Shown: in pieces, positions 6,845 to 40,054 of the stretch
How positions within the stretch are numbered: position 1 is the first letter of the stretch
Layout: each line of letters starts with the position of its first letter
Virus record (IMG/VR): IMGVR_UViG_2687453508_000006
Direction: 5' to 3' (one strand)
From: a virus
Taxonomy: Duplodnaviria; Heunggongvirae; Uroviricota; Caudoviricetes
DNA length: 64,000 bases
Notes under the pieces: generated by a model
Seen by the model: the letters and a program-made list of their open reading frames with translations, nothing else
Databases searched by the model: none
Told to the model about the DNA's origin: nothing
Made by a program: the position numbers and the translations under genes

Positions 6845-7185
6845 CAGTTCACCACCTGCTCTATCGTGCAACTGAAATCACTGTACCGGGCATTATCCGT
6901 GACACTCCACTCACGGCACACAACCCTCACCGTCCGGTTATGTTTCGGCGGTCGCCACAAAAAGGCACGGTAACCACCATGCCAGGATAAAAATTCATCC
7001 AGCCAGCGCCGGGTTGACTCATCCGTCACCCGGAACACCGCCTGAAACGTCTTCAGTTGAGGATTCAGCCCTGTGGGGCGGCGCTGTTCATAACCGTCAC
7101 CAAACCGCACCCTCACCACCGACGGCTTCTCACTCACCTGCATCCCTTCACGCGGGACCAGATGCAGCGTTTTTATCTCAGCCAC
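6844..7185 (-). CDS. M: minor tail protein M
   Basis: 113 aa, lambda gpM-like, between H and L. Confidence 0.85.
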   Translation of the reverse strand: MAEIKTLHLVPREGMQVSEKPSVVRVRFGDGYEQRRPTGLNPQLKTFQAVFRVTDESTRRWLDEFLSWHGGYRAFLWRPPKHNRTVRVVCREWSVTDNARYSDFSCTIEQVVN

Positions 7186-10100
7186 TCAGCATTCCTCCGT
7201 CACGTCGCATGGACAGCATCACCGCCTGCACCCGCTGGTCAATCAGCTGCACAAGACTGCCTGCCGCCTCCGGCCCTATCTGTCCGTTAGCCCCGTCATT
7301 CTGAATGGCAATGTGGTAGACCGGGGAATACACCAGACCAGCACTGCCGTTCATACTGCCCACGGCGCGTACGCCCAGCGAGCCATCCGCCGCCCGGGTC
7401 AGGGGCATAATAGCTTCAGGTCCGGCTTCCCCCATCAGCCCGGCCCCTTTTGCAAACGCAAAGTACGTGGGCGTGTCCACAATGCTGTTGCTGTACGCGC
7501 TCAGGTTTGCCGAGGTATACACGCCGCCTTTTGCATTGGCCACCGCTCCGCCCAGCCAGTCACCAATGCTGCCGAGAAATCCTCCCGCACCGGACATACC
7601 GTTTGCCGCCGTCTTAATTCCGTTGACAATCGCGGCATTCATAAGAACTTTTGATATTTCCTGCAGTACGGATGAGGCCCAGCTGCGCCATTCCACTTTA
7701 TTTCCGTTCAGCATCTCCGTGATGTTATTCACCATCCCTGAGATACCCTCCGTCGCCAGCTGTGCTGCCTGTGAGGCGTAATCGGACGCATTATCCACCC
7801 AGTTACTGAATCCCTCCTGCAGCCCTTTCTGCCAGTCCGCACGCTGCACATCCGATTCGGCATAAAAGACTGCCTGGTCCTTAAGGCGTTCGCTCAGATA
7901 CTGCGCGTTCTGTGCCAGCGCCTGTCTGTAAAAATCCTCACTGATATCCCCGGTCTGATACTGAGACTGAAGGTCCGCATCCTTCTGGCGGAAGCTGTCG
8001 CGGATCTGCTGCAACTCCCGCATGCGTTCCCTGGCTCGTTCCCCCTGCCCGTACCCCAGCAGTTCAGATTCATTTGATGCACGCGCAGCCACATTATCAT
8101 TCTTCAGGGTCTCTTCCCGGTACCGCAACTGCTCCCGGATTTTTTGCTGGTCAATCAGGGCCGCATTGCGCAGCAGTTCCTGCTTCTGTATCTCCGACAG
8201 GGTTTTCAGTTCACCCAGCGCTGTCTGGTACTTCAGCTTCGCCAGCTCCGTGTTCTGACCGGCCAGTGCCAGTTGCTCTTTCTGCTGCTTCAGCAGCCGG
8301 GAAAAACTGTCTTCCGCTTTTTCCGTCTCTGATTTTCCACCCCGGGATTTGGGTTTATTCACCTCGTTATTGCGCCAGGCTTCCAGGGCATTACTGATAT
8401 AACGTTGTCTCGCCTCCTGATACGGATCCCCCACAAAACCGAGGTCATCCGCCGCATACCCCAGTCGGACGCGCTCTTTTTCTTCCCCTTTCAGTCTGGA
8501 CAGGGCCAGCTCACGCTCTGTTTTTGTCAGGGCACTCTGCTGTTTATCATCCAGAGTGGCCTGTGGCAGCCGTAACGGCACATTCACCAGTCCCTGCCGC
8601 TGCTGAAGCAGTTCATTCCCCAGCCCCAGCAGACGGTTGAATTCCGTATACTGACCGTTCATAACCAGCATGGACTGGTACACCTTATTCTGCTCTGCCG
8701 CCTGCTGACGAATTAACGCCACACGACGGTCTTCCAGCCCGGCAAGCACATCCTGAATGGACTGCGCTTTTTCCTGCATCTGTGCCAGACGGGACTGCTC
8801 AACGGCAAGCTGCTCTGTTGCCTGAGCAAGCCCTTCCGTTACGGTCTTCACCGATGTCAGATGGTTTATCATGAATCCGTCACCGGTCGTCCAGCCCGGG
8901 TTCGCCAGAACATACTGATATCCTGCGATTTTTTCCTGCAGGGATTTCACCCGACTGGCCTGTTCATCAATCAGCCGGTTCTGCTCTGTCAGCGCCGCCC
9001 GTGTTCGTCCTTCATTATCTGAGGCTTCAGGCAAAGACATTGACGGCGTTTTATGCGCGATTTCATCTATCGTCAGTGCATACTGGCGCGCAGACTCCCT
9101 GGCCTGCTCCTGATTCTGGTACAGCGTGTACCATGCTGCAGCCCCCAGCATCACCAGTCCGGGTACGCCACCAACCAGCCCCAGCGCACCGCTCATCAGA
9201 CGTGAGCCCACCGCCGTTGTACTGTTCAGCGCATTCTGGGCGGCGCTTCTGGCAGCAATATTTCTGTTCAGGCGTTCCTGTGTGGCCGCCAGACGGGCCT
9301 CTGCAGCAATCTGCATCTCCGTCCCGCGGGCTGCCGCCACGGCCTGCTGAGCACGGTACACGGCTGCCCTTGCCCGCGCCGTGGCAATCTGCGTTCCCCT
9401 GAACTGTGCTTCCGCCAGTGCAACTTCATTACGTGCAGCCGTCACAAGTCCTGCCGTGGCAGACATCGCTCCGGAGGCCATATTGCCAAAGTACCGGGCA
9501 ACCCCGACGGCAACCAGCGCGCCCACGGCTGTTGCCACATTATCAATCTGTCCGGCAACACCGTTCAGCATGCCGGAGAGCGTTTTTGTCACCCCGCTGG
9601 CCTCATTCGCACCGCCCACCCAGGCCATAAAGGCGTTTTCCACCTTTGTGATACTACTGGAAACCGTTTCCGGCATGGCCGCATATTCATCACGTAATAT
9701 CCCCAGCTGGCTGATTAACGCGGGGACCACTTTATCCGCTGTCAGTTTTCCGTCATCCGCCATTGCCTTCAGATCTTTACGGGCCACGCCCATACCCGCA
9801 GCCAGTGCACGTACGATCCGGTCACCACTTTCATTGACCGAATTAAACTCCTCACCACGCAATACACCCTGCGCCAGCGCCTGACTGAACTGGGTGATCA
9901 CCGAGCCCGCCTCTGCCGTACTGGCACCGGAGATTTTCAGCCCTGTCGAAATGGCCTCCGTCACCTTCAGCACATCATCAGCACTGTAACCATATTCACG
10001 CATCGAGGCAGCCGAACGGGCAAACAGGGCCGCATTATCCGAAAATGCGGTGCCTGTCCGCTGGCTGATATCCATCAGCACTTTCTGTGATGACGCAAAT

Positions 10101-10420
10101 TCATCGGATGACTGTGATGCCTGTTTCAGACGGGCATTCACGGAGCTCCATTCATCCGCCAGCGAAATCAGGTGTCCGGTGGCAAAGGCACCGGCAAACG
10201 CACCGGTCATTCCGACAGCCGAAGCGCGGATTTCCGTCAACTGGCTGTGCAGCTCAGCCAGAGCCCGGCGCTGCTCCCTGGCTGCCGCAGCAGCCTGACG
10301 TCCGCCATTCTGCAGGGTCCGGTAATATTCACTGCCCATACGGGACGCCCGCTGGATCTCCGACTGGAATGACTGTGAATTTGCCGAAATTTTGATAATC
10401 AGTTCACGTAACGTCGCCAT
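7178..10420 (-). CDS. H: tail tape measure protein H
   Basis: 1080-aa intact ORF, coiled-coil-rich, C-terminal NDGANGQIGPEAA motif as in lambda gpH; RBS GGAGAAAGG. Confidence 0.9.
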   Translation of the reverse strand: MATLRELIIKISANSQSFQSEIQRASRMGSEYYRTLQNGGRQAAAAAREQRRALAELHSQLTEIRASAVGMTGAFAGAFATGHLISLADEWSSVNARLKQASQSSDEFASSQKVLMDISQRTGTAFSDNAALFARSAASMREYGYSADDVLKVTEAISTGLKISGASTAEAGSVITQFSQALAQGVLRGEEFNSVNESGDRIVRALAAGMGVARKDLKAMADDGKLTADKVVPALISQLGILRDEYAAMPETVSSSITKVENAFMAWVGGANEASGVTKTLSGMLNGVAGQIDNVATAVGALVAVGVARYFGNMASGAMSATAGLVTAARNEVALAEAQFRGTQIATARARAAVYRAQQAVAAARGTEMQIAAEARLAATQERLNRNIAARSAAQNALNSTTAVGSRLMSGALGLVGGVPGLVMLGAAAWYTLYQNQEQARESARQYALTIDEIAHKTPSMSLPEASDNEGRTRAALTEQNRLIDEQASRVKSLQEKIAGYQYVLANPGWTTGDGFMINHLTSVKTVTEGLAQATEQLAVEQSRLAQMQEKAQSIQDVLAGLEDRRVALIRQQAAEQNKVYQSMLVMNGQYTEFNRLLGLGNELLQQRQGLVNVPLRLPQATLDDKQQSALTKTERELALSRLKGEEKERVRLGYAADDLGFVGDPYQEARQRYISNALEAWRNNEVNKPKSRGGKSETEKAEDSFSRLLKQQKEQLALAGQNTELAKLKYQTALGELKTLSEIQKQELLRNAALIDQQKIREQLRYREETLKNDNVAARASNESELLGYGQGERARERMRELQQIRDSFRQKDADLQSQYQTGDISEDFYRQALAQNAQYLSERLKDQAVFYAESDVQRADWQKGLQEGFSNWVDNASDYASQAAQLATEGISGMVNNITEMLNGNKVEWRSWASSVLQEISKVLMNAAIVNGIKTAANGMSGAGGFLGSIGDWLGGAVANAKGGVYTSANLSAYSNSIVDTPTYFAFAKGAGLMGEAGPEAIMPLTRAADGSLGVRAVGSMNGSAGLVYSPVYHIAIQNDGANGQIGPEAAGSLVQLIDQRVQAVMLSMRRDGGMLSG

Positions 10421-10467
10421 TCACCTTTCTCCGGGCGTAAAAAAACCGCCTCAGCGGTTCTCATCAT

Positions 10468-11147
10468 TCATGACTGTGCTGCAAGGCTCAGCGCGTCTTC
10501 CAGCGCCGCAAACGGATCCACCTCCGGCTTATCCTCATCCTCGCCCCAGCAGAGCATGGCGTCCTTCAGTGCAACATTCATCCCCTGTGCCCCGAAAACC
10601 GCTTTCACGATCTGTGCATTACGGATATCCCCGCGCTCATCACCCAGCGGGGATATCCTGTCGAACTCCATCCACATCATCGCCTCGCTCGCACTCAGGC
10701 TGTGGCGCAGTTCGGATAAGGTGCGCCCCAGACGGAGCGCAAGTCGCATCAGAAAGCGAATTTCCGGGCGGGCTACTTTTTTCTGGCCGACTCTGCATCA
10801 GCGATCAGTTCCAGTGCCTGACGCAGCAACCGGGCATGTACCGGACCATAGACGGCCAGCACCTGCTCACGGTCGTCCGGAGTGAACACCCGCTGCAGGT
10901 CCGTATCACACAGGACATCGCAGAACAGCGTCACATCCGCTTCCAGGTTACGGCGGGTTTTCGCCACCACCGACAGGGTATCGTCATCCTCTCCATCACC
11001 ATTGAGCACTTCCTGCCACAGATACCAGGCCTCTGCCGAAGGCTCCCGCAGCACCACGCTGACATTACCCCATTCCGGCACCTTCACCGTTTTATGACGA
11101 AACCCTGACAGTCTGGCCAGCGCCAGCGTTTTCAGATCCTTTTTCAT
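10468..11147 (-). CDS. tail assembly chaperone G-T fusion made by programmed -1 ribosomal frameshift
   Basis: Heptamer A AAA AAG (minus strand, plus 10777-10783) at end of G; -1 frame reads KKVARPEIRFLMRLALR... into the T ORF 10468-10749. Confidence 0.6.
10773..11147 (-). CDS. G: tail assembly chaperone G
   Basis: Start MKKDLKTLALARLSGF at 11147; ends ...ESARKK with slippery A_AAA_AAG immediately before the stop. Confidence 0.75.
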   Translation of the reverse strand: MKKDLKTLALARLSGFRHKTVKVPEWGNVSVVLREPSAEAWYLWQEVLNGDGEDDDTLSVVAKTRRNLEADVTLFCDVLCDTDLQRVFTPDDREQVLAVYGPVHARLLRQALELIADAESARKK

Positions 11148-11161
11148 GATGACCCATCCCC

Positions 11162-11878
11162 TTATCCGGCGGCTGCGCTCACTGTCACGGTGCATTCAAC
11201 AGACGTCACACTCTGTGCTTTCTCTGCCGAATCGGTCACCACACAGGTATATTTCCCCGCATCAGCGGACTGCGCACCTGGCTTACTGAAGGTGTCTGTC
11301 GTCTGCCCGTCAACCGGCTGACCATCCTTCTTCCAGGCGTATTTATACGGCGGCGTTCCCCCGTTGGCACTGACTGACATTGTCAGCAGCGCACCGGTAT
11401 TCACGGTAAGTGTCTTATCCAGATTTTTCACAAACGCCAGCGGTACCACAAAGGACACCGGTTTGCCTTTCAGACGCAGTGAGAACGTTGCAGCCACCAC
11501 GCCGTTGGTACCGGATGACCAGGTGTGCTGGCGCACTTCCGCCAGGAACTTAAAGCCCTTACCGGACGGAAACAGCACCTTAAACGCATACAACGCGTCA
11601 TTGTCATAGGCATCACGCAGGGCGTTCTGGGCCTGATTCAGATAAAAATTGCCCGACATGGAAATCTCAGACGACGCCCCCAGACCATTGATGTTCTCCT
11701 GCTCTGTGGAGCAGAGCGTGGTCACATCAATATCCTGTTTCTGACCGGCGGTGAACTGGACTTCCTTGATGGTGCAGTCCAGGCGCAGATATTCCGCCTT
11801 ATCCATAGTTTCAGCAGTCGCCGGGGCAGATGAAATCATCACCTGCGTCAGCTGTGAGCGTTCATACAAAGCAGACAT
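11162..11878 (-). CDS. V: major tail protein V with C-terminal Ig-like domain
   Basis: Start MSALYERSQLTQ at 11878 with AGGAGG RBS; C-terminal Big_2-like segment ...GKYTCVVTDSAEKAQSVTSVECTVTV. Confidence 0.8.
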   Translation of the reverse strand: MSALYERSQLTQVMISSAPATAETMDKAEYLRLDCTIKEVQFTAGQKQDIDVTTLCSTEQENINGLGASSEISMSGNFYLNQAQNALRDAYDNDALYAFKVLFPSGKGFKFLAEVRQHTWSSGTNGVVAATFSLRLKGKPVSFVVPLAFVKNLDKTLTVNTGALLTMSVSANGGTPPYKYAWKKDGQPVDGQTTDTFSKPGAQSADAGKYTCVVTDSAEKAQSVTSVECTVTVSAAAG

Positions 11879-11946
11879 TCTGCCTCCTGATAATAAAAAA
11901 ACCCGCACGCGGCGGGGTATGGGTTTTGTAGAAAAAAAAGAAAAAG

Positions 11947-12291
11947 TCACACCGTGACCTGAAACTCCAGGGTTGCACGGTAACAGCGGTTTTCCGGAAT
12001 ATAGTCCTGCATTTCACTGACGGATCCCGGGGCCAGCAGCATTATGGCTTCACGGGCGTCCTGACGTATCTGACGCGCCTGCGTCACAGTCCCGGCATAA
12101 ACGTCTATCTGCACCGACACTGAGGACTCCGCCTGCCCGCCCATCACGTCCGCAGACACCGATGAAATCAGGCTGAAAACCACCCACGGAAGCGCCACCG
12201 ACGGCCTGCCATCCAGCAGGGGGACCACATACGGGTACACCTGCCCGCCGGCAAGATGCGCCAGATAAGGATACAAATCCGCCTCCGTCAT
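11947..12291 (-). CDS. putative tail terminator/completion protein (lambda U functional analogue)
   Basis: 114 aa, position between gp10-like protein and V. Confidence 0.45.
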   Translation of the reverse strand: MTEADLYPYLAHLAGGQVYPYVVPLLDGRPSVALPWVVFSLISSVSADVMGGQAESSVSVQIDVYAGTVTQARQIRQDAREAIMLLAPGSVSEMQDYIPENRCYRATLEFQVTV

Positions 12292-12734
12292 CGTCTCAGT
12301 ACCTCATCAATGGCCCGGTTCATCCGCGCAATCGCCACCTGAGCTGCCTGTTCACTGCGCACATCAAACGCCGGGCGCACAAACGGGTGCGGTGGCATAT
12401 TCACGGTCCCCATTTCCACAAACCGCCAGTAGAAAGCATTGCGCGGGTTATCCGCCTTCATGGTGTTATCGCTGTTACCGGTGTCCGGATTAACACCACG
12501 GATATGGACACCGGATTCCATCCCGCCATCGCGGGAGCGCCGGGAAAGGACCACCACATTGCGGCGCAGTTTTCCCCTGCGTACCGGTGCCCGTGACACC
12601 ACTTCTTCTTTCAGCACATTCGCACCCGCACGGGTTGCCTCACGCAGCACCCGGTTATTTTCCGCACCACTCAGAAGCTGCAAATCGCGGCTGATGTCCT
12701 CCAGCCCCGAAAAATCCAGCAGGGTTTCGATCAT
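12288..12734 (-). CDS. HK97 gp10-family tail-component protein
   Basis: 148 aa, MIETLLDFSGLEDISRDLQLL...; position in connector module. Confidence 0.65.
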   Translation of the reverse strand: MIETLLDFSGLEDISRDLQLLSGAENNRVLREATRAGANVLKEEVVSRAPVRRGKLRRNVVVLSRRSRDGGMESGVHIRGVNPDTGNSDNTMKADNPRNAFYWRFVEMGTVNMPPHPFVRPAFDVRSEQAAQVAIARMNRAIDEVLRR

Positions 12735-13081
12735 TTTTCCCCTCCCAGCCGACAGAGAATTTCCAGACGCCCGCCGGTCACATCCGGCACGGGCAGCCCG
12801 ACAACGTTCAGGATCCGGTCACGCCATGGACCACTCAGCACATGAAGTCGTGACGCTGCCGTGATTTCCCGGCCGGACTGACCGCGCACCCAGATGCGGA
12901 TTTCCGCCTGCGCCATTTCCGCACCGGACTGCATCCGCTCCCGGCTGCTCCTGCCACGGATATCCGCATGAATTTTCCCGCATGACACCCATTCTTCCGT
13001 CATTTCTCCGGCAGCATTACGGGTTAACACCGGGTTCAGAACACTTATCATCTGTGTCAGACGACCTGCAGATATTGCCAT
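12731..13081 (-). CDS. phage head-tail adaptor (head closure) protein
   Basis: 116 aa; connector-module position; overlapping start/stop with neighbours. Confidence 0.6.
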   Translation of the reverse strand: MAISAGRLTQMISVLNPVLTRNAAGEMTEEWVSCGKIHADIRGRSSRERMQSGAEMAQAEIRIWVRGQSGREITAASRLHVLSGPWRDRILNVVGLPVPDVTGGRLEILCRLGGEK

Positions 13082-13090
13082 TCCCCCTCC

Positions 13091-13417
13091 TCATAACACC
13101 GTCGGACAACGCAAATCGTAAATCAGCACGGACACAGAAAACGGCAGTTCCCCCTGCACGAGGTCTTCCCGCTCAGCAAGATCCGGATTCCGGTACAGCA
13201 TCCCGGTCAGTCGCATGGCAGCCCCCTTCATCCGGGTTAATGCCTCGCCCGGGATCAGCTCACCGTCCTCACGAATCACCTTATCCCGGCTGCCCTGAAT
13301 GTAGGCCAGCAGCACGGCGGTAGCCTGACGAACCTTGTCCATCAGCATGTCATCATCCGCGTCATGGTCGACACGCAGATGTGCCTTGATCTCTTCCAGT
13401 GTCAGTAATGCCGTCAT
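13091..13417 (-). CDS. gp6-like head-tail connector protein
   Basis: 108 aa, MTALLTLEEIKAHLRVDHDADDDMLMDKVRQATAV... Confidence 0.6.
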   Translation of the reverse strand: MTALLTLEEIKAHLRVDHDADDDMLMDKVRQATAVLLAYIQGSRDKVIREDGELIPGEALTRMKGAAMRLTGMLYRNPDLAEREDLVQGELPFSVSVLIYDLRCPTVL

Positions 13418-14637
13418 TTTCCGCCTCCTGCATCCCGTCCACGTTTGGCAGCCAGGGTCCAGCCTGATGAATGAGCTTCTCCGGGTTTATCACCGGTCAT
13501 ACTGTTGCAGTGCCACAGCGAGCCCCCCCACGTCACCGTATCACCGGGGTGGTAGGTTTCACCGGCTCTGAACACACCGCGGTAGAGCATCACCGGCAGG
13601 GAAAATGTTTTTTCCGTACGCTGGCCACTGCTCTGCCGGACCACCACAGTGAACGACCGTTCGCCGGTCATGCTGACGTCAATATCGGCCACCCCGTCAA
13701 CCAGGCATTCCCATCCCCGCATCCCGTGCGTTTTTTCATACGCCCGCCAGAGTCCGCCCTGGTGTGTGGCATACGTGCCCCGGGGAAAGGATTTTTGATC
13801 GTCAATGGCGGGGATTATTTCCAGTGCCGTGGCATCACGCCCGTCCTGCGGAGCCGGCAGGGCTCTCACCGCATCCAGAACAGCCTTCTGCAGAACATCG
13901 GGATCATAGTCACGACCATCACGCGGAACAGGAATATGGCTTACCGCCTCTTTCACCATCTGTTCAAGCATCGGACGCACATCATCGGGGGTAATACTTT
14001 TGCCGTCCGCCGGTACCGGAATATTCGCAACCGCATCATTCACCGCCTGCTTCAGTACTTCCGGATCATAATCACGACCGTCACGCGGAGCAGGGATATG
14101 GCTTACAGCCTCTTTCACCATCTGCTCAAGCATCGGACGCACATCATCGGGGGTGATACTTTTGCCGTCCGCCGGTACCGGAATATTCGCAACCGCATCA
14201 TTCACCGCCTGCTTCAGTACTTCCGGATCATAATCACGACCGTCACGCGGAGCAGGGATATGGCTTACAGCCTCTTTCACCATCTGCTCAAGCATCGGAC
14301 GCACATCATCGGGGGTGATACTTTTGCCGTCCGCCGGTACCGGAATATTCGCAACCGCATCATTCACCGCCTGCTGCAGTACATCCGGATCATAATCACG
14401 ACCATCACGCGGTACCGGAATGGTCCCCACAGCGTCATCCACCATCGCCTGCAGAACCGGATGTACCTCATCCACCGTCACATGCTTCTGTAATACCGCC
14501 GACAGGGAAGCCAGTTTCTCTTCAAACGCTTGTGCCTGCGCGGCCATCTTCCCCTCAAATGTGCGCTGTAAATCCGCCAGCACCGTGGAGAATTCTTCGC
14601 CCAGTGCACGAATAATGGACAGTTCCCGTTCCGTCAT
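13414..14637 (-). CDS. head-module protein with three tandem 54-aa repeats (function unknown)
   Basis: 407 aa; repeat unit ...PRDGRDYDPEVLKQAVNDAVANIPVPADGKSITPDDVRPMLEQMVKEAVSHI... x3 plus a partial fourth. Confidence 0.6.
   Translation of the reverse strand: MTERELSIIRALGEEFSTVLADLQRTFEGKMAAQAQAFEEKLASLSAVLQKHVTVDEVHPVLQAMVDDAVGTIPVPRDGRDYDPDVLQQAVNDAVANIPVPADGKSITPDDVRPMLEQMVKEAVSHIPAPRDGRDYDPEVLKQAVNDAVANIPVPADGKSITPDDVRPMLEQMVKEAVSHIPAPRDGRDYDPEVLKQAVNDAVANIPVPADGKSITPDDVRPMLEQMVKEAVSHIPVPRDGRDYDPDVLQKAVLDAVRALPAPQDGRDATALEIIPAIDDQKSFPRGTYATHQGGLWRAYEKTHGMRGWECLVDGVADIDVSMTGERSFTVVVRQSSGQRTEKTFSLPVMLYRGVFRAGETYHPGDTVTWGGSLWHCNSMTGDKPGEAHSSGWTLAAKRGRDAGGGK
13936..14421. repeat. intragenic in-frame tandem repeat, 3 x 162 bp
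   Basis: Exact 162-bp periodicity (e.g. ccggatcata at 14061 and 14223). Confidence 0.7.
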
Positions 14638-15998: not shown

Positions 15999-16209
15999 TC
16001 GCCATGCTCCGCATCACGTTTCTTTTTCTGACCTGCCGGACGTCGCGCTGTGATGTACTCCGCCTTCCCCAGGCGAACCAGCACCTCCGCACACGGCTGT
16101 GCCACATCACGGATATCCCCGGCCCGGGCATCATGCGTGCCCTGCAGATATCGGATCTTTGCCATAACCTGTTACGGGAGGCGCACGCCTCCCGTCCTCC
16201 TTATCAGAC

Positions 16210-18147: not shown

Positions 18148-18210
18148 ATCAGCCTCCTGAAAATAAAAAAACCGCCGCAGCGGTTCATGATGGTTACAGT
18201 GTGAACAGGG

Positions 18211-27581: not shown

Positions 27582-27632
27582 TCACCTTTCTCCGGGCAAA
27601 AAAAACCTGCCACAGCAGGTTTTCATCATTAT

Positions 27633-29023: not shown

Positions 29024-29091
29024 TCTGCCTCCTGATAATAAAAAAACCCGCACGCGGCGGGGTATGGGTTTTGTAGAAAAAAAAGAAAAAG

Positions 29092-30226: not shown

Positions 30227-30235
30227 TCCCCCTCC

Positions 30236-30562
30236 TCATAACACCGTCGGACAACGCAAATCGTAAATCAGCACGGACACAGAAAACGGCAGTTCCCCCT
30301 GCACGAGGTCTTCCCGCTCAGCAAGATCCGGATTCCGGTACAGCATCCCGGTCAGTCGCATGGCAGCCCCCTTCATCCGGGTTAATGCCTCGCCCGGGAT
30401 CAGCTCACCGTCCTCACGAATCACCTTATCCCGGCTGCCCTGAATGTAGGCCAGCAGCACGGCGGTAGCCTGACGAACCTTGTCCATCAGCATGTCATCA
30501 TCCGCGTCATGGTCGACACGCAGATGTGCCTTGATCTCTTCCAGTGTCAGTAATGCCGTCAT
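30236..30562 (-). CDS. gp6-like head-tail connector protein (copy 2)
   Basis: Identical to 13091-13417. Confidence 0.6.
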   Translation of the reverse strand: MTALLTLEEIKAHLRVDHDADDDMLMDKVRQATAVLLAYIQGSRDKVIREDGELIPGEALTRMKGAAMRLTGMLYRNPDLAEREDLVQGELPFSVSVLIYDLRCPTVL

Positions 30563-31782: not shown

Positions 31783-33143
31783 TTTCTCAGTATCCCCCTG
31801 AACATCGCTTTCACTGCATCATGCTCTGTTTCACTGATTGCCTTATTACCGTCAGATGCGCCGTCAGGCAGTTGTGCTGAAACTGTTTTCCCGGCAGACG
31901 CGAACGGATCCTCACGGGCATCACGACGGGACAGCGCCTCCAGACTGTAGTTCTGCTGCTGAAGATACAGTGCATCACCGCCGGCCAGGGGCGGCAGGTT
32001 CTCCCGTTTACGGGCCTCATTGGGCGTGAGAAGCGTATTTTTCACCGCATCCCCCAGCGTTTTCATGCGCCGCTCACTGTCCATTCTCAGCAGCGTGGTG
32101 ACATCAAATTCTGTACTCTCGTTTTCCCCCGTTTCCAGCGCCTCATCCAGTAACAGTTCAATGGACTCAATCAGCGTCTGCAGACACTGGGAATAATACT
32201 GCTGCTCCAGCGCCTCCACGTTGTCACTGGAAGGCGGGTGGCCAACGCCAATCTTGTAGGCCGGGACACGGAACACCGAACAGACAATTTCAGCCGTCAT
32301 TTTCAGTTGTTCCACCGTCTGCGCATCCACCGGTGAAAACGTCGTGGGGCTGTATTTTGCCCCGTTGCTCAGTATGGCCGTCTTCCCGGCATTTTCGCCC
32401 GTATATCCGCTGTCCCAGTTCCCCTTCAGTTTTTTCGCGTTTTCTTCCGTAATACTGCCGGGGACCTCAATCACGCCTGATGGTCGCCCGCCATTTCTGA
32501 AAAAATACGTCGAATTTGCCTGAATATGATGCCCCTGCATGGCGGCCAGTCCTGCGGCATACACCGGCGGCAGCCCCACAAGCGGATGAAAAAAACAGTT
32601 AAAACGGTCGTGGATCACCTCCCGGGCAGGCACCGTCACCGACTCTGTGATCCCACAGTTCCGGTCCGGCGTGATGCGGTAGAACACCTCGCCGTCATCC
32701 GCCACCAGAGGTTCAACCCGGTTCCAGTCCAGAATACGCAGTTCTTTGATCTGCCCCCGGGGGGTGCGGATTTTCAGCACCACCGTATTGCCGTGACGCA
32801 ATTTGGAATTCAGCCACAGTTCAAAAAACTGGATGCGATTCTGCTGCGCATTAGGACGACGACAGAGACGGGCAGTATCTCCCTGCCGCTTTTCCCGGCG
32901 TATTCCCTGTACATCAGTCTGCATCAGGCGAAGCCGCATTTTGGCAATATCCTGGGATATCAGCGAAATGCATGAAAACACCGCGTGAAAGGACAAAACG
33001 GTTTCCGGATCGGCTTTCACCCCCTGCTGCCAGGCACCGGCAAAAGGCTCAGCCACCGCCTGAAACAGGGACCGCCAGCCCACTTCTCTTACGTCACGTC
33101 CTGATTTCTGGTTTTTTCGGGTTCGCCGCAAAAGGTTCCACAT
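31779..33143 (-). CDS. portal protein (copy 2)
   Basis: Identical to 14634-15998. Confidence 0.7.
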   Translation of the reverse strand: MWNLLRRTRKNQKSGRDVREVGWRSLFQAVAEPFAGAWQQGVKADPETVLSFHAVFSCISLISQDIAKMRLRLMQTDVQGIRREKRQGDTARLCRRPNAQQNRIQFFELWLNSKLRHGNTVVLKIRTPRGQIKELRILDWNRVEPLVADDGEVFYRITPDRNCGITESVTVPAREVIHDRFNCFFHPLVGLPPVYAAGLAAMQGHHIQANSTYFFRNGGRPSGVIEVPGSITEENAKKLKGNWDSGYTGENAGKTAILSNGAKYSPTTFSPVDAQTVEQLKMTAEIVCSVFRVPAYKIGVGHPPSSDNVEALEQQYYSQCLQTLIESIELLLDEALETGENESTEFDVTTLLRMDSERRMKTLGDAVKNTLLTPNEARKRENLPPLAGGDALYLQQQNYSLEALSRRDAREDPFASAGKTVSAQLPDGASDGNKAISETEHDAVKAMFRGILRK

Positions 33144-33354
33144 TCGCCATGCTCCGCATCACGTTTCTTTTTCTGACCTGCCGGACGTCGCGCTGTGATG
33201 TACTCCGCCTTCCCCAGGCGAACCAGCACCTCCGCACACGGCTGTGCCACATCACGGATATCCCCGGCCCGGGCATCATGCGTGCCCTGCAGATATCGGA
33301 TCTTTGCCATAACCTGTTACGGGAGGCGCACGCCTCCCGTCCTCCTTATCAGAC

Positions 33355-35292
33355 TCAGCCGCCGGACGCACTGCCGTAGTTCACTCCGGTGATCACCGCC
33401 ACCGCCGCAGTACGGCGACGACGCCAGTTGATCCAGCGCTCCGCACGGATGGCCACGCTGCCTGTCTGGAACATGGAAACCAGCTCCACCGGGGACGGCG
33501 TGGTACTGTCGCCGCCCGGCTCAGACTGCATTTCCAGTGATGCCTCGCGGGACATATCCACTGCCACGCCGCCGTCATCCGCCAGATAAATATCCGGGGC
33601 ATTCACCAGCACCAGCTGGTCACCCACGTACTGGGAGACAATCACCGGCAGCCCCTGGAAGGAGCCACCCAGCAGGGTCATGTCCGGGTATTCCTTCTGA
33701 CCCAGCGCATTTTTACGCATGGACAGTGCCAGGGCATTGGTGCTGGACATCAGCCAGACCGCACCGGTGGGCTGCAGGTTTGCTGCCACAAACTGTCCAA
33801 ACGCAGCCTCGGCATCCGCATCCGGGTTACCGGTTGATGCCGTGCCCTTCACATCATGGGTGATGGACGCCGGGGAGACATCTGCCACTGCGGCTTTTTT
33901 CGGGTCCACAAAGTCTGTATCCAGACGCGCCACCACCGCTTCCGCCAGCGCATTACGGACCAGTGCATCAGCAGCCGGACTGGAAAAACGGATCAATTCT
34001 TCCGTCAGTACCGCAATGGCCGACACCTTCGCATGACTGAAGGTGATGGATTCAAAATCAAACTTCGTCAGGGGTTTTGCCTTACCCTCACCCACCCAGC
34101 CGGCAGCACCGCCGGACACCTGGGCGTGCACACGGATATTGAATGGCACCTGACGAAGTGCAGGGATCCCGCCCTGACCAAATCGCCCGATAATGGTCTG
34201 CGGACGCAGGTAATCAATAAAGTCCTGTGCGTATTCCTGATATTCAGACAGGCTGCCTGCCCACTGCGGATCCGTGGTGGTCCCCGCGCCCACTGCCGAT
34301 TTCAGGACATGATGCAGACGACTGTCATCCGGATACTGACGACGGGCCACTTCCAGGGCTTCAGATCGGACGCCTTTAGCCGCAGCCAGCGATTTGGCAA
34401 AGCGGGCGAAGCCAATCCCCTTATCCAGTTTCTGCTCCACACGGATCACCGGCGCAGAAGCCACCGCGGCCACATTCCCGTTACCGGCCTGTTTCACCGG
34501 CTGCGCCGTGGCGGCCTTACCGGCTTCCAGTTCACGCAGGCGCTTCAGGTGCGCATCCACCTGACGGATTTCCGCTGCGGTGTTGTCGTAATGCTCTTCC
34601 TCCTCCACATCCAGCGTGCGCCCTTCCTCTGCGGCTTTGGTCATGACCTCCTCAAGGGAGGCTGCCAGCGCTGCACGCTTGTTTTCAAAACTTTTAATCT
34701 GTTCGCCAATATTCATTATGGTCTTTTCCTTATGAAAAACGGTTGTTGACTGTGCCGCAGCGCCGGCAGAAGATGCGATTTTCACCACCGGTTTCCGGTT
34801 GCCGGACGCGGCAGAAAACGGGCGGTCGTAAGATTTAATGGTCCGGATGGTGCATTCCGCATTCGCGGGCACGGTGACGGCAGACACCTCCATCAGTTCC
34901 CAGCGCAGAAAATGCAGTCCGCCTCCGTCCAGAAAGGTGTATTCATGGGGACGGAAGCCCACGGACAGCCCCCTGACCAGCCCGGTCTTAATGGCCGCCC
35001 AGACCTCATCCAGCCGGGCAGCCAGTTGCGACGGCATATCCGGTACGGGCTTCACCAGTGTTGCCGTGATTTCCAGCCCTTCGCTGACCCGGCGCACCGT
35101 ACACTGCCCCACCGGGCGGGAATGGTCATGCTGCCAGAGAAACGGGATCGCACTGCCAAACTCCGCGCCCTCCGGCTCCAGGATGTCACCATCCCGATCC
35201 GGAGAAGGCGTTGACGCAATCCCGGTGATCACCCGTTCATCCTCACTGAAGGATTTCACCGTCAGCAGGGAACAGGCCCGTTTAAGAGTCAC
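33355..35292 (-). CDS. prohead protease - major capsid fusion (copy 2)
   Basis: Identical to 16210-18147. Confidence 0.75.
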   Translation of the reverse strand: MTLKRACSLLTVKSFSEDERVITGIASTPSPDRDGDILEPEGAEFGSAIPFLWQHDHSRPVGQCTVRRVSEGLEITATLVKPVPDMPSQLAARLDEVWAAIKTGLVRGLSVGFRPHEYTFLDGGGLHFLRWELMEVSAVTVPANAECTIRTIKSYDRPFSAASGNRKPVVKIASSAGAAAQSTTVFHKEKTIMNIGEQIKSFENKRAALAASLEEVMTKAAEEGRTLDVEEEEHYDNTAAEIRQVDAHLKRLRELEAGKAATAQPVKQAGNGNVAAVASAPVIRVEQKLDKGIGFARFAKSLAAAKGVRSEALEVARRQYPDDSRLHHVLKSAVGAGTTTDPQWAGSLSEYQEYAQDFIDYLRPQTIIGRFGQGGIPALRQVPFNIRVHAQVSGGAAGWVGEGKAKPLTKFDFESITFSHAKVSAIAVLTEELIRFSSPAADALVRNALAEAVVARLDTDFVDPKKAAVADVSPASITHDVKGTASTGNPDADAEAAFGQFVAANLQPTGAVWLMSSTNALALSMRKNALGQKEYPDMTLLGGSFQGLPVIVSQYVGDQLVLVNAPDIYLADDGGVAVDMSREASLEMQSEPGGDSTTPSPVELVSMFQTGSVAIRAERWINWRRRRTAAVAVITGVNYGSASGG

Positions 35293-35355
35293 ATCAGCCT
35301 CCTGAAAATAAAAAAACCGCCGCAGCGGTTCATGATGGTTACAGTGTGAACAGGG

Positions 35356-37017
35356 TTATATGAAAAAAACCGCATATTCTTTCTTTTTCGGTTCCGGGTT
35401 AAGGGACATCAGGGAGACCGCATTGAACAGCGCCATCAGCGGGTCAATTTTTCCCCGTCCACTGGCCTGTTTGGTGATAAGAATGGCGTTACCTTTAGGC
35501 TCCACCCGGGCATTGCCGACACACCAGGCCATCAGGGGCTGGTCACCATGCACCAGCACCCCTTCAGCCAGTTTGCGCTCGGTGGTTTTAATGGCCCCGC
35601 CCAGTTTCCAGCCCTGGCTTATCCCCACCACAATTCCGTCGGGGATCCCGGCTTCCGCCAGTGAATCCAGAATCTGCCCCACCCCTGACGGGTCAATACC
35701 GATATGGTCCAGTAACTCAGCCTCATGAATGCGACGCACATATTCCGCCACTTCCGCCGTGTCATCCCCGACACGCCGGACAATGGTCATATCTCCACAG
35801 GCAACAAGATCCTGAAACCGGGACGCCTCGCTCTTCCGTCGGACCACCGCGGTTTCATGCGCCCAGGCATGGCCCCAGCCCAGCCATTCGCGGGTTTCCC
35901 TGTCACGGCCAATCACGTACATTCCCAGCAGATCATCCAGGCCCCCGCCGTCAATCCCCACCGTCACCACATCAGCGCGCTGCAGGATATCGTCCAGGCT
36001 GACGCGCCTGCCCTGCTGCTCCCAGAAATCCGCACCCGCCCAGCGGTCAGAACGCAGGGCAAGACCAATTTCCACATTGGCATGTTTTGACATGAAGCCA
36101 CGAAATGCTTCCTCACCAGCCTCCCGGGCTTTACGGTACTCCCGGTACAGAAAAGCCTCATCCACCGAATAACCGAGATTCGGGTTAACCATGGCGAGGT
36201 TTTCCATCAGCAGGTGAGCCCCGCTTTCCACCATTTCAGGAGGATGCTCAAAAATCACCGGCAGAAAGTGCGGATCATGAATTTTGCCGTCACGGACATC
36301 CCGGGCGTACTGCAGTTTCTGTCTGAACACCCCGGCTGGCGGCTCATTCGACTGGGTGGTCGTATACACCACAAACCCTTCCGGGCGGGAGGCAAGGCCG
36401 CCTATGGCTTCACGTAACATGTCCTCCGCTTTGTACTGCTTGCCAAATAACCACAGTTCATCAATCAGCGTCCCCACGGACTTGATACCGGATACCGTAT
36501 TCGGATCGGCAGCCACCACCTTCAGGGTGGTGTCCGTCACCCTGTGGGTGATGGTCCGGATATGTGTCTGCACCTGACAGAGGTCATCCAGATCATCGTC
36601 CCGTCGTACCATATCCCTGGCAGGGTTGAAGGCGTTAGCCGCCACCTCCACGGTCGGGGCCAGAATGGTGTAGCCCGCCGCCTGCCGCCAGTTCAGTAAC
36701 AGCGCCGTCATCATGATCCCGGCAGCCAGCGTGGACTTGCTGTTTTTCTTGGGGATAAGGATAAAAACTTCCTTGATATGGCGTACACCGGTCTGCGCAT
36801 CGTAGGAGCCAAACAGGGCCGCCACCAGGTCAAACACCCACTGTGCGCAGGACTCCCCGAACGTCGGGCTGCCCGGTGCATCCACAATCCGCAGTTGTTT
36901 AAAAATCGCCAGGGCATGTGCGGCCTGCTCCGGATAAATCGGAGCCGGAATAATCGACAGCCCCTTTTTCAGGCGCTCTGCCCAGTCCGGGCAGGCCGTG
37001 CTCCACACAGGTATCAT
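35356..37017 (-). CDS. terminase large subunit (copy 2)
   Basis: Identical to 18211-19872. Confidence 0.85.
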   Translation of the reverse strand: MIPVWSTACPDWAERLKKGLSIIPAPIYPEQAAHALAIFKQLRIVDAPGSPTFGESCAQWVFDLVAALFGSYDAQTGVRHIKEVFILIPKKNSKSTLAAGIMMTALLLNWRQAAGYTILAPTVEVAANAFNPARDMVRRDDDLDDLCQVQTHIRTITHRVTDTTLKVVAADPNTVSGIKSVGTLIDELWLFGKQYKAEDMLREAIGGLASRPEGFVVYTTTQSNEPPAGVFRQKLQYARDVRDGKIHDPHFLPVIFEHPPEMVESGAHLLMENLAMVNPNLGYSVDEAFLYREYRKAREAGEEAFRGFMSKHANVEIGLALRSDRWAGADFWEQQGRRVSLDDILQRADVVTVGIDGGGLDDLLGMYVIGRDRETREWLGWGHAWAHETAVVRRKSEASRFQDLVACGDMTIVRRVGDDTAEVAEYVRRIHEAELLDHIGIDPSGVGQILDSLAEAGIPDGIVVGISQGWKLGGAIKTTERKLAEGVLVHGDQPLMAWCVGNARVEPKGNAILITKQASGRGKIDPLMALFNAVSLMSLNPEPKKKEYAVFFI

Positions 37018-37577
37018 CCGTTGCCCTCATTATCATTATTCACCACCAGGCGGGGTGGTGGTGGCACCGCAAAACGGTTAGCCGCTTTTTTCGCCGCGTC
37101 ACCTTTTGCCGATTTTTTACCGGCATCCCCTTTTTTGTGGTGCGTGAACTGCGCCAGCTTATAAGCCGCATCCAGCGCCAGCCTGGGGTCGGTATTAATG
37201 TTCTCCACCAGAAGACGCCCCATCGCTTTCACCGGATCGGGAAGACCGTCCTCCATATACTCAATACCAGGAGATATCACCACGGGCGGTGGCATCTCCG
37301 GATTTGTTTCGTCCGGCTGTGGTATTGCAGCCGCCTCACGGCGACGGGGTTTATCCTCCGGCTCTGATTTTTTCTGCCGATAAACAGGAACCTCATCCAC
37401 CTCCACCGTCTCGCACTGTTTACGGGCTATAAACGCAAGCACCTCCGGATCTTTTGCCAGCTGCGAGCCTTTAACCCTGGCTGTCTTCGCCGAATAACCG
37501 GCGGCAAGGGCTGACGCTGTTTTGTTTTTCCCGGACATGAGCGCCAGCGCAAATTTTCGTTTTTGCGTTGTCAGCAC
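37014..37577 (-). CDS. terminase small subunit (copy 2)
   Basis: Identical to 19869-20432. Confidence 0.7.
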   Translation of the reverse strand: MLTTQKRKFALALMSGKNKTASALAAGYSAKTARVKGSQLAKDPEVLAFIARKQCETVEVDEVPVYRQKKSEPEDKPRRREAAAIPQPDETNPEMPPPVVISPGIEYMEDGLPDPVKAMGRLLVENINTDPRLALDAAYKLAQFTHHKKGDAGKKSAKGDAAKKAANRFAVPPPPRLVVNNDNEGNG

Positions 37578-37648
37578 AGCCTCCTCCCGGGTCCAGAACG
37601 CACTCAGCCGGGTATGGTTCAGCCCATTTTTCCCGGCGTCTCATGCCG

Positions 37649-37774
37649 CAAATGTTAACTGCTGCCTGGTTAACATTTGCTGAAAAAGCCTGTTAACATT
37701 TTTTCCGCACAACAAACTGAATAATAAAGATAAAAACCGCAAAAATGCCCGGGCAGCCAGTTAACATGTTAACT
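37649..37774. other. cos-like GTTAACAT palindrome cluster (copy 2)
   Basis: Same motifs as 20504-20629. Confidence 0.4.
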
Positions 37775-37866
37775 GCCCTGAAACGGGAATTTTTTCTCTG
37801 CGTGAGAGGGGGCGCGGTGTCCAGGGCGATCGTTTTTTTTCGCCGGATGATCCCCCCCGGGTCTGG

Positions 37867-38232
37867 TCACAGGCCAGTGATTCCGTCGGCCCTGAGCGTG
37901 CCATCAGGAAGCTCAGGCAACGTCGGATCAGGCATACCACTCGCCGCTTCACTCGCTGACTTCTGGCGATGGCATTCAGTACAGAGGGTCCAGAGGTTCG
38001 TCTCCTCATTACCACCACCGAACTGAAGTGCAATGCGGTGATCGAGTTCACTGTCACAAAGGTCAACCACGCGTCTACAGAGACAACAGTGTCCGGCATC
38101 CCTCCGCCAGATACGACGTTTGAGGGAAACCCGGGCACTGCCACTGACACGACGCTGTTCCCCCCTCAGGACATTTATCCGCCGGGTGTTCAGAGTTTTG
38201 ATTCTGCCCGGTAACGTACGAAGCACAGCCAT
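37867..38232 (-). CDS. HNH endonuclease (copy 2)
   Basis: Identical to 20721-21086. Confidence 0.8.
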   Translation of the reverse strand: MAVLRTLPGRIKTLNTRRINVLRGEQRRVSGSARVSLKRRIWRRDAGHCCLCRRVVDLCDSELDHRIALQFGGGNEETNLWTLCTECHRQKSASEAASGMPDPTLPELPDGTLRADGITGL

Positions 38233-38273
38233 GTAAAATCCTCGCCATATAGCTTGTCACCAGAGGAAAGAAA

Positions 38274-38501
38274 ATGTCATCGAAAAACCGGCCCCGCAGA
38301 ACAACAACCCGCAACATCCGATTTCCAAACCAGATGATTGAACAAATTAACATCGCTCTTGACCAGAAAGGTTCAGAAAATTTTTCTGCGTGGGTCATTG
38401 AATCTTGCCGCCGGGAGCTGGCAGCAGACATAAAATATGCCCGTCAGTTGACTATAAAAAAGAATGATACACAGTATGCTCTGCGATGGCTGTTCATATA
38501 A
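38274..38501 (+). CDS. ylcI: YlcI/YnfO-family protein (copy 2)
   Basis: Identical to 21128-21355. Confidence 0.65.
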   Translation: MSSKNRPRRTTTRNIRFPNQMIEQINIALDQKGSENFSAWVIESCRRELAADIKYARQLTIKKNDTQYALRWLFI

Positions 38502-38863
38502 CTATTTCTTTATATTGCTGAATTTATAAAAACTCACAGACATTAGCTGTATTAATTCCGAATTGAAATAATCAGCCATATAGAATAAAAATAAAGCATA
38601 ACAATAATAATCTTCTACCCAATCAGTACATTACTGCTGTGACTCCAACACGGCAGTTTTTTTATTGAACAGATTCCAGTTTCTTCCACCATCGCACCGG
38701 ACGGGCGACCATGAGGGGAGAACGCCGCGCTCCGTTTACGCGGTAAACCCCGGTGTGTATCGTTTTTGATTATCCCCGCACACTCTCGCAGAGGAGTCTC
38801 CCTGTCGGGCTGCGGTCTCTGTTAATGCAGGAATACGGCGACGATACGGCGCATCAGCAAAAC

Positions 38864-39331
38864 TTAGTTCAGGCACTGAGTGCGGATATAGTCCTGTGCC
38901 CCTTCCAGCTGCTTCTGCATTGTCATCAACCGTTCTCTGAGGATGAAATAATCCCGTTCAGCGGTGTCTGCCAGTCGGGGGCCGGTTGCATTATCCACGC
39001 CGGAGGTGCCGGTGGCTTCACGCACGGTACCGGAGCAGGTGGCGTTGATCCGCAGGCGCTTACGACCAGCGGCAACATCAGCACGCAGAGTTTCATTTTC
39101 AGCTCTCGCATCGGCTAACTCCCTCGAGTATTTTGCATCGAGCGCAGCAACATCACGCTGGCGCACCTGCATGTCAGTAATGGTGGCATTCGCCTGTTCC
39201 AGCTCTCTGGCTTTTTTATCGCGCTGCGCTTTGTAGGTGAGCGCGTTGTCACGGTAATGGTTTGTTGCCAGCCACAGCGCACCATAGCCAACCGCCAGGA
39301 CAATAATCACCACACACAGAACACGGTTCAT
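38864..39331 (-). CDS. Rz: i-spanin Rz (intact copy)
   Basis: 155 aa, N-terminal TM helix [22 protein letters not shown] then coiled-coil periplasmic domain. Confidence 0.8.
38926..39111 (-). CDS. Rz1: o-spanin Rz1 embedded in Rz
   Basis: 61-aa lipoprotein ORF in +1 frame within Rz. Confidence 0.65.
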
Positions 39332-39484
39332 CTCTCTTTCACCCCACCAGTCCCGATAACGTCAGGACTCGCCAGGCGGTGGAAAAGAAAATGGCAACCA
39401 GCATGACTAAAAATGAAATGCCGACAAGTACACAGAGGCTCTTCACCAGCGTTATGAGTTTATCTGATATCATTAGCCACCCCA

Positions 39485-40054
39485 TCAATCCGCCTTTGTT
39501 ATTTTCCCTTTGCCTGTATCAGCCAGGACAAAATCAATCAGCATATTCGCTTCATTTACCAGCGTACGGATTTTTGATACATGCGCGGCTTTAACCTGTT
39601 TCCACTCATTCAGCCCGGTAGCAAACACACTGGCAATGTTTTTATCCCGTTTCATGTCAGCACAAGCCTGGTTGAGTTCTTCCATCACGCTCATTTTACG
39701 GGGATTAACGACAAAACCCTTCGTCCAGTACTCGTAAAGAACATCGTCGCACTCTTCCTGATACCGGATGACCTTATCGCGGATTTCGGGTTTTACTTTG
39801 TTGGGATTAATGGTTTGTAGCCAGCCGGCAAGTTTTCGAAGTGGCATGGACACCATATTGCGTTGTTTCCCATCCTCAGCAACCATAACGATTTCCGTTA
39901 TAGTTGACGCAAAACGCTGTCTTAACTTAGCCAACTGTGATTGCCAGGCCAGCCCCATCCCCGCAACGACAGGTTTCATGGGAACGTATGGTTCGCCATT
40001 ATGGTTAACTACATAAAGAGAGTTGCCGTGAAACGGCACGGCCATCATATTCAT
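39485..40054 (-). CDS. antirepressor-like protein (P22_AR N-domain-like), intact copy
   Basis: 189 aa MNMMAVPFHGNSLYVVNHNGEPYVPMKPVVAGMGLAW...; sits between R and Rz as in some Stx-type phages. Confidence 0.5.
   Translation of the reverse strand: MNMMAVPFHGNSLYVVNHNGEPYVPMKPVVAGMGLAWQSQLAKLRQRFASTITEIVMVAEDGKQRNMVSMPLRKLAGWLQTINPNKVKPEIRDKVIRYQEECDDVLYEYWTKGFVVNPRKMSVMEELNQACADMKRDKNIASVFATGLNEWKQVKAAHVSKIRTLVNEANMLIDFVLADTGKGKITKAD

Follow-up and report, generated by a model that had tools for sequence, protein, structure and literature searches.

Misassembly as the most likely source of a duplicated and partly broken module in an O157:H7 lambdoid prophage

The window, i.e. the whole stretch of 64,000 nucleotides that we analysed, holds two copies of a prophage module in which different genes are broken. 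Do these copies record a duplication followed by decay, or were the second copy and the damage produced when the genome was assembled?

Two copies with different broken genes

The repeat is direct and head to tail, with a unit of 17.3 kb. Copy 1 extends over positions 6440–23761 (17,322 bp), and copy 2, which has the same gene set, over 23762–40913 (17,152 bp). The unit takes in the genes for lysis, head and tail of a lambdoid prophage of O157:H7, in which an Sp12-type tail is combined with the early region of Sakai Sp10. Its minus-strand genes are L (3′ part), M, H, T, G, V, gp17, gp10 and the head closure, connector and portal genes, followed after portal by capsid, terL, terS, HNH, Rz, ant and lysozyme. 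Pairwise alignment of the two copies gave 143 difference events, namely 118 substitutions and 25 indels. The offset between the copies was 17,144–17,146 over the head, terminase and HNH genes, and 17,161–17,322 over the tail genes.

Gene status was judged against the CDSs of strain Wll001, the nearest relative, and against the ORF lists. The terS, terL, capsid, HNH and lysozyme genes were intact and identical in both copies. The portal gene (13414–15998, minus strand; twin at 30559–33143) was frameshifted identically in both, owing to 1 bp missing in a G run near 14654. The same base is missing in Wll001 and in Sakai Sp10, and this frameshift is outside the copy-specific damage. The tape measure gene H of copy 1 (7178–10420, minus strand) was intact, its long allele of 3,243 nt being 100% identical to WP_000212822.1 of Wll001. 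Its counterpart in copy 2 (24500–27581, minus strand) was broken into about seven minus-strand ORF fragments and carried the natural 162-bp deletion of the short allele together with private indels. Copy 2 also had broken G and V genes, a tail completion gene (gp17) disrupted by the loss of a C at 29204, and a head closure gene disrupted by an added C at 30152. In copy 1, the Rz/lysis gene (21719–22187, minus strand; intact twin at 38864–39331) was frameshifted by an extra C at 22000. The antirepressor N-terminal-domain gene, ant (22341–22904, minus strand; intact twin at 39485–40054), was truncated, with a 6-bp deletion, a missing C at 22501 and an added A at 22519.

The earlier note on this DNA had described two copies with differing gene damage, i.e. 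a fragmented and shortened H and disrupted G, V and tail/head-connection genes in copy 2, and damage to Rz and ant in copy 1; all of this was borne out. Its statement that the head, portal, terminase and HNH genes are identical at a constant offset holds for the identity, with the qualifications that the offset shifts slightly and that portal is frameshifted in both copies. It had further proposed that almost every function keeps one intact allele. This is correct by gene status, portal excepted, but is not supported as a sign of biological decay, since the damage tracks the join.

Damage around the join and the single-copy relative

Every copy-private deviation lay within one 9.5-kb zone (20687–30152), which straddles the join at 23762 and contains approximately 30 private indels or scrambles. 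All eight copy-1 deviations were in the last 18% of the unit (P ~1e-6), and all 18 copy-2 indels were in its first 38% (P ~3e-8). The eight private events in the left half of the zone (20687–23067), which frameshift Rz and truncate ant, were nearly all indels of 1–6 bp: gains or losses of 1 bp in short runs, a 6-bp deletion (TCGCCA) with an adjacent T>A change, and a 2-bp deletion (GT). These copy-1 errors thus comprised short-run length changes and small deletions, without paralog alleles. The right half (23762–28456) consists of tail sequence of paralog-pool type, from L′ through M, H, T and G into the beginning of V, and it held 21 of the 23 copy-2 private events, mostly deletions of 1–2 bp with a few scrambles of 5–9 bp. 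In the remainder of the zone (28457–30152), the own-locus haplotype was found again, with the two single-base indels in gp17 and head closure. As to size, 14 of the 25 indels were of 1 bp and five of 2 bp, and scrambled strings occurred in H and V. A spectrum of small indels, short-run length changes and scrambles is that of a noisy long-read consensus, as expected of an artefact.

Wll001 carries one copy of the module. Positions 1–20686 and 40900–64000 of the window, and hence 6440–20686 of copy 1, were 100% identical to Wll001, and between these flanks the window was longer by 17,146 bp. A single-copy close relative with identical flanks is what an artefact would predict. The first 14.2 kb of copy 1 showed no differences from Wll001. 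The same was true of the last 10.8 kb of copy 2 (30153–40921), except for a homopolymer C present in both copies (20706 in copy-1 coordinates). Degeneration after a duplication would scatter mutations independently of position, but no substitutions relative to Wll001 were found outside the 9.5-kb zone. The selective decay suggested by the earlier note is therefore not supported: all the damage sits in one block at the join, and the outer parts match Wll001. We must also note that the Wll001 assembly itself begins and ends within its Sp6-like prophage, and that its first ~5.5 kb contain many 1-bp indels and frameshifted genes, so noisy contig ends do occur in these repeats. Among the errors listed, none coincided between this noisy record start and copy 1.

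The copy-2 tail and the O157 paralogs

Nearly all substitutions in copy 2 corresponded to alleles of Sp6/Sp9/Sp10-type O157 prophage tails, the 162-bp short-H allele included. We considered 107 sites at which the own-locus allele is unique among the paralogs. Copy 2 had the paralog allele at 92 of them and the own allele at five isolated sites up to 28454, and from 28457 onward it showed the own allele only. Partition-pattern analysis over all patterns of three tails, Sp12-type (own locus), Sp10-type and Sp6-type, indicated that copy 2 equals their two-out-of-three majority at ~281 of 291 variable sites (~97%). This analysis is more discriminating than an equal-weight majority vote of four paralogs, which was uninformative alone because the real Sp6 copy, fitting the majority at 97% of sites, scored as high as copy 2. 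The agreement is that expected of a consensus collapsed from several paralogs, with the caveat that Sp6 itself is near the majority. The 23 copy-2 private events were mainly deletions of 1–2 bp, together with scrambled strings, one of them a 9-bp insertion in H, and seven of the 23 sit exactly on paralog-variable columns.

The copy-2 tail haplotype was not found in 5,426 complete E. coli genomes, where the best identity for the segment was 98.1%. Its indel-free block of 699 bp reached 99.7% at best, and 99.4% among the O157 strains listed. The copy-1 tail segment, on the other hand, had a 100% match in another genome. As single donors of the copy-2 tail we tried the Sakai prophages Sp6, Sp9, Sp10 and Sp12, the Sp6-like prophage of Wll001, F8798 and strain 3384, none of which fits; Sp4 was rejected because its head and tail module differs. 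Described as a mosaic, the tail needs at least 34 segments among seven donors, with switches at single sites. Gene conversion should leave tracts identical to an existing donor, and no such donor was present in the 5,426 genomes. The earlier note had read the clustered substitutions as evidence against homopolymer error and for recombination between related prophages. Homopolymer error indeed does not explain them, and related prophages are their source, but recombination in vivo is not supported, given that no donor haplotype was found in these genomes.

The join and the competing explanations

The novel join, with an 8-bp microhomology (CCAGCGGT), lies at 23762–23769. The same 8-mer occurs at the left edge of the repeat, within gene L (6440–6447), and at the right edge, in the 3′ end of the YdfR gene (40914–40921). 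The string containing the join is TCTTCAGGCCAGCGGTCTCTCAG. At the join, the 3′ end of YdfR meets the middle part of L, two positions without homology to each other. This join was not found in the 5,426 complete E. coli genomes, the GTDB representatives, IMG/VR or the INPHARED phages. An artefact would be expected to join arbitrary ends, whereas the ends joined here share CCAGCGGT, and a random join would have a microhomology of at least 8 bp with a chance of ~1e-4. The microhomology is therefore one point against a trivial artefact. Plain end-to-end concatenation leaves it unexplained, and it points either to a real template switch at the DNA level (possibly in a single molecule, or as a library chimera) or to ends that software merged because of a very small overlap.

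Nevertheless, we consider it most likely that the duplication and the decay are artefacts and not biology, and we put at roughly 80% the probability that there is one real copy of the module, the second copy and all of the apparent decay having been created by assembly. The region belongs to the near-identical lambdoid prophage modules of O157:H7 (Sp6, Sp9, Sp10 and Sp12 types), at which breaks or overlaps of long-read contigs are typical. Two overlapping stretches of one locus would have been joined head to tail rather than merged; they may have come from opposite ends of a single circular contig or from the ends of two different contigs, or one chimeric or rare read may have bridged them. 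The 9.5 kb between 20687 and 30152 would have had little correctly placed read support. To the left of the join, small indel errors would have been retained in the consensus, breaking Rz and ant. Over the first 4.7 kb to the right, the consensus would have been pooled from reads of several paralogous prophage tails, taking the majority allele at each variable site and acquiring deletions or scrambles where reads disagreed, which would have broken H, G and V. Two stray 1-bp indels would account for gp17 and head closure. The complementarity of the damage would then arise because the bad zone runs from the last part of copy 1 into the first part of copy 2. As far as the sequence allows us to judge, the pattern is the signature of a low-depth, mixed-paralog long-read consensus, with the low-coverage step and the read-level cause of the artefact both inferred. 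Against the artefact, the majority-type haplotype could be that of a genuine, ancestral-like paralog that is unsampled.

Long-read assemblies are documented to break contigs at repeats and to leave near-identical overlaps where contig ends are of low quality (PMC4699355). As in the untrimmed or wrongly merged contig ends addressed by Hunt et al. 2015 (Circlator, PMC4699355), the copies are near-identical and head to tail, quality collapses towards the join, the break falls within a large multi-copy repeat, and the nearest relative is single-copy. Unlike those cases, an 8-bp microhomology is present, which simple concatenation does not predict, and the window lies inside its record, which for an artefact requires a later rotation or merging of the sequence. 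A collapsed-repeat consensus would resemble copy 2 in its majority allele of the paralog pool at ~97% of variable sites, its single-site reversions and its deletions where the paralogs disagree. It differs in that the effect is limited here to the first 4.7 kb of copy 2, the rest being clean own-locus sequence.

What, then, speaks for a real event? RecA-independent template switching or illegitimate recombination at CCAGCGGT might have produced a 17-kb tandem duplication in vivo, carried perhaps by only some cells of the culture or private to one isolate; its middle would have been unresolvable or unpolished, and the differences between copies would still be consensus errors. This reading, which we judge unlikely, draws on the microhomology exactly at the join, the head-to-tail order with unique flanks, and the fact that both outer parts are perfect copies of one locus. 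Microhomology-mediated (RecA-independent) tandem duplications of bacteria likewise have their copies head to tail, and a short direct repeat marks each edge and the novel join. However, the copies of a real duplication that is still young are identical and its join is well supported, whereas the join region is here the noisiest part, all 143 difference events lie near the join, and the structure is unique to this record. Were the duplication clonal, depth would be full over the join, which should thus be the best resolved region and not the worst. Moreover, copy 2 begins with paralog-pool alleles that are lacking from the corresponding, clean part of copy 1, the join is in no other genome searched, and tandem repeats of 17 kb are unstable when the host is recA+. 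Mutagenesis by break-induced replication near a real junction was rejected, as ~30 private indels in 9.5 kb would, from general knowledge, be orders of magnitude too dense. That the 17.3-kb lysis-head-tail module of this defective prophage was genuinely duplicated by template switching at the 8-bp microhomology, the tail genes of copy 2 then being overwritten from several sister prophages, appears very unlikely.

It is highly improbable, in our view, that an older real duplication diverged biologically, with copy 2 first receiving gene-conversion tracts from other O157 prophages and later accumulating frameshifts, copy 1 losing Rz and ant, and one working allele kept per function. In favour of this reading, the substitutions form clustered tracts of genuine paralog alleles, and there is one intact allele for every function except portal. 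Real prophage recombinants, however, have tracts identical to a donor and lack a cloud of private indels, whereas the copy-2 haplotype matches no donor in the genomes searched and has such a cloud. The three-way majority rule, the isolated single-site reversions, the private deletions on paralog-variable columns and the scrambled strings resembling raw long-read noise also argue against divergence in vivo, as does the density of private events at the join beside 14.2 kb of copy 1 and 10.8 kb of copy 2 with no substitutions relative to another strain. Furthermore, with portal frameshifted in both copies, selection cannot maintain complementation in the prophage. As reported by Asadulghani et al. 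2009 (PMC2669165), the Sp6/Sp9/Sp10/Sp12 group shares a common head region, arranged slightly differently from that of lambda, and recombination among O157 prophages is known. The element fits that defective prophage pool in combining an Sp10-type early region with an Sp12-type tail, and all variant alleles of copy 2 come from it. This combination also bears on whether two different prophages of one genome were joined, e.g. the Sp10-type and Sp12-type partners of a known inversion, copy 2 being a true second locus. The left flank and copy-1 tail are Sp12-type, and in Sakai coordinates the right flank corresponds to the early region of Sp10, but Wll001 and ECP17-1298 carry the Sp12-tail/Sp10-early combination as one contiguous single-copy prophage, and the join links non-homologous positions. 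A Sakai-type (pre-inversion) Sp10 as the source of copy 2 and the right flank was also rejected, its tail being only 97.2% identical to that of copy 2. We find the joining of two different prophages barely credible.

If the duplication were true, it would add a modest case of amplification at a microhomology within a prophage, and together with the overwriting of tail genes by sister prophages it would give a snapshot of the reshuffling of a "prophage pool". The main value of the locus is as a warning that false duplications, noisy at their joins, raise the number of pseudogenes counted and give rise to "decaying paralogs" that do not exist. Artefacts of this kind can be screened for without reads by the pattern seen here, which consists of perfect identity to a single-copy relative outside the join block, a majority-of-paralogs haplotype, and deletions at paralog-variable sites. 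Such artefacts can mislead studies of O157:H7 prophage evolution, where the near-identical prophages are already hard to assemble.

Repeat structure and prophage setting

The window represented a lambdoid prophage of E. coli O157:H7, in which two direct repeat copies stood head to tail, copy 1 at 6440-23761 (17,322 bp) and copy 2 at 23762-40913 (17,152 bp). The 8-mer CCAGCGGT occurred at the left edge (6440-6447), at the novel junction between the copies, hereafter the join (23762-23769), and at the right edge (40914-40921); the join thus carries an 8-bp microhomology. When the CDSs annotated in the nearest relative, the single-copy strain Wll001 (NZ_CP064167.1), were mapped onto the window, all repeat genes fell on the minus strand, with the left breakpoint within the minor tail gene L (6146-6844) and the right one in the final 13 nt of the YdfR gene (40909-41253). 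The unit comprised the 3′ part of L, M, H, T, G, V, gp17, gp10, head closure, connector, portal, capsid, terL, terS, HNH, Rz, ant and lysozyme. The offset between the copies was 17,144-17,146 over the head and terminase genes, which bears out the offset of 17145 given in an earlier note on this sequence, and 17,161-17,322 over the tail genes. The copies differed by 143 events, namely 118 substitutions and 25 indels.

Among the O157 prophages, Sp6, Sp9, Sp10 and Sp12 make up a group in which the head-formation region is arranged slightly unlike that of lambda (PMC2669165). The right flank (40900-64000) was identical to Wll001 and showed 100% identity to the early region of Sakai Sp10, and the left flank and copy-1 tail were of the Sakai Sp12 type (99.9-100%). 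This combination, which recombination between Sp10 and Sp12 would give, is contiguous in both Wll001 and ECP17-1298, with the flanks 17,146 bp nearer each other, so both strains have a single copy. The Sp10/Sp12 pair also mediates a large inversion known in O157. We also observed a low-GC island at about 46000-52000, in the early/late regulatory region (34-42% GC, compared with about 55-58% for the structural genes). Its products, assigned by identity to Wll001 and Sakai, are a DNA cytosine methyltransferase, an O-methyltransferase and an ATP-binding protein, and the island may represent cargo or a defence module.

The portal genes (minus strand, 13414-15998 and 30559-33143) were identical between the copies, as previously noted, but that account needs correction in that both are frameshifted. 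Compared with the intact Sakai Sp9 portal (2,580 nt), a G run near 14654 was one G short, and so was copy 2 at the matching position. Wll001 and Sakai Sp10 have the same frameshift, and their annotations give the gene as frameshifted or split it into two CDSs; the defect seems to have been inherited within this prophage lineage rather than arising as an error in one copy. The C-terminal half of the portal (13868-14491 and 31013-31636) contains a tandem array of about 3.8 copies of 162-bp units, 82-95% identical, corresponding to a 54-aa repeat at the protein level.

Distribution of the differences around the join

In window positions 1-23769, the first difference from Wll001 was at 20687, and we found nine small indel events and a sole substitution, a T>A next to a 6-bp deletion. 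Immediately downstream of HNH, both copies had one C more than Wll001 within a C homopolymer (20706 and 37852), which reflects either genuine variation between the strains or a homopolymer error in the assembly of one of them. All other differences in 20687-23067 belonged to copy 1 only, with copy 2 in the Wll001 state, and those in 23867-30152 belonged to copy 2 only, with copy 1 in the Wll001 state. Consequently, all private deviations (differences from Wll001 in one copy only) fell within one 9,466-bp block, 20687-30152, astride the join at 23762. None occurred in the first 14.2 kb of copy 1 or the last 10.8 kb of copy 2; under independent decay, such placement has a probability of about 1e-6 (eight copy-1 events) and about 3e-8 (18 copy-2 indels). 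The apparently complementary pattern therefore results from a bad block spanning the end of copy 1 and the start of copy 2.

The gene disruptions themselves were much as the earlier note had described them. In copy 1, Rz was broken by an additional C at 22000 and ant by the loss of 6 bp at 22848, together with -C at 22501 and +A at 22519. In copy 2, H was fragmented into about seven ORF pieces and shortened by 162 bp, and G, V, gp17 (-1) and head closure (+1) were disrupted. The copy-1 changes (-T in a T8 run, +T in a T5 run, +C, -C, +A, -TCGCCA with the adjacent T>A, and -GT in GTGT) included no paralog alleles and are ordinary consensus indel errors.

Paralog alleles in the copy-2 tail

The copy-1 tail segment had a 100% match in another genome, whereas that of copy 2 had none above 98.1% among 5,426 complete E. 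coli genomes. Nearly all copy-2 substitutions were alleles of Sp6, Sp9 or Sp10-type tails. What reads as a 162-bp "deletion" in H (8768-8929 in copy 1; junction 26085/26086 in copy 2) is the short-H allele that occurs naturally, with the direct repeat TTTTTCCTGCA at its borders. O157 prophages carry either a long H of 3,243 nt (Sp12, Sp6, F8798) or a short one of 3,081 nt (Sakai Sp10 and Sp9, the Wll001 Sp6-like prophage), which differ in the segment between the TTTTTCCTGCA repeats.

We scored 107 sites at which the own-locus (Sp12-type, as in copy 1) allele is found in none of the other paralogs. Up to 28454, copy 2 carried the paralog allele at 92 of these, the own allele at five (isolated) and something else at six; from 28457 onward it carried own-locus alleles exclusively. 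No single donor was found for this tail, which broke into at least 34 segments among seven candidate donors, with switches at single sites, and even an indel-free 699-bp block reached at most 99.7% in any genome (99.4% in the O157 strains listed). When variable sites were sorted by how the paralogs partition, copy 2 had the allele common to any two of three tails (own Sp12-type, Sp10-type and Sp6-type) at about 281/291 sites, although an equal-weight majority of four paralogs is matched by the real Sp6 copy no less well than by copy 2. In principle, a majority-type haplotype might belong to an ancestral-like paralog that has not been sampled.

Copy 2 also contained 23 private events, mostly 1-2 bp deletions, seven of them on columns where the paralogs disagree. 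Scrambled strings were seen in H (CATCAATCAG--CCGG to CATCATCTGAGCCGCCTGCCTGG) and at the G/V boundary (GCCTTATCCGCCCGCACCATTAACCG to GCCC--ATCCCCCGCACCATT-----). This pattern resembles a consensus made from shallow, noisy read coverage drawn from several paralogous loci and does not resemble gene conversion.

Assembly context and interpretation

The join was not found in complete E. coli genomes, GTDB representatives, IMG/VR contigs or phage records. In long-read assemblies, contigs are known to break at large repeats and, where their ends are of low quality, to overlap in near-identical sequence (PMC4699355). The Wll001 record itself starts and ends within its Sp6-like prophage, between lysozyme and ant, and its positions 1-5500 contain many 1-bp indels, with ant, Rz, DUF3950, HNH, terS and terL frameshifted. 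The indels in this first ~5.5 kb probably stem from a contig end left uncorrected in a public "complete" genome, and noisy contig termini thus do occur in such modules.

From the sequence pattern we infer, with a probability of roughly 0.8, that the locus is single-copy and that the second copy and the copy differences arose in assembly. At the read level, two overlapping representations of one locus, perhaps the ends of contigs or else a path spanned by a single chimeric or rare read, would have been joined head to tail and not merged. The 9.5 kb around the join would then be low-support consensus, built from own-locus reads with residual indels to its left and from reads pooled from paralogs to its right. 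The structure fits a known class of artefact, in which overlapping low-quality contig ends yield false duplications, in combination with collapsed-repeat consensus, and the join microhomology is the one tested feature that departs from the simplest form of that class.

That microhomology, with a probability of about 1e-4 at an arbitrary join, is the one feature at odds with a trivial artefact. It suggests either a real template switch, perhaps in one molecule or in a library chimera that went on to mislead the assembler, or the merging of ends over a very small overlap. Because of it, we still regard a real duplication whose internal differences are artefacts as conceivable, if unlikely. A clonal duplication, however, would give full depth over the join and make it the best-resolved region, and here it is the worst; the paralog alleles in copy 2 alone would also be left without explanation. 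True complementary decay, as the earlier note proposed, or in vivo gene conversion appears highly improbable: substitutions are absent outside the 9,466-bp block, the copy-2 haplotype has no donor among the 5,426 genomes, private indels sit on columns that vary between paralogs, and neither copy has an intact portal anyway. The "decay" of the repeat copies is no biological feature of this prophage.
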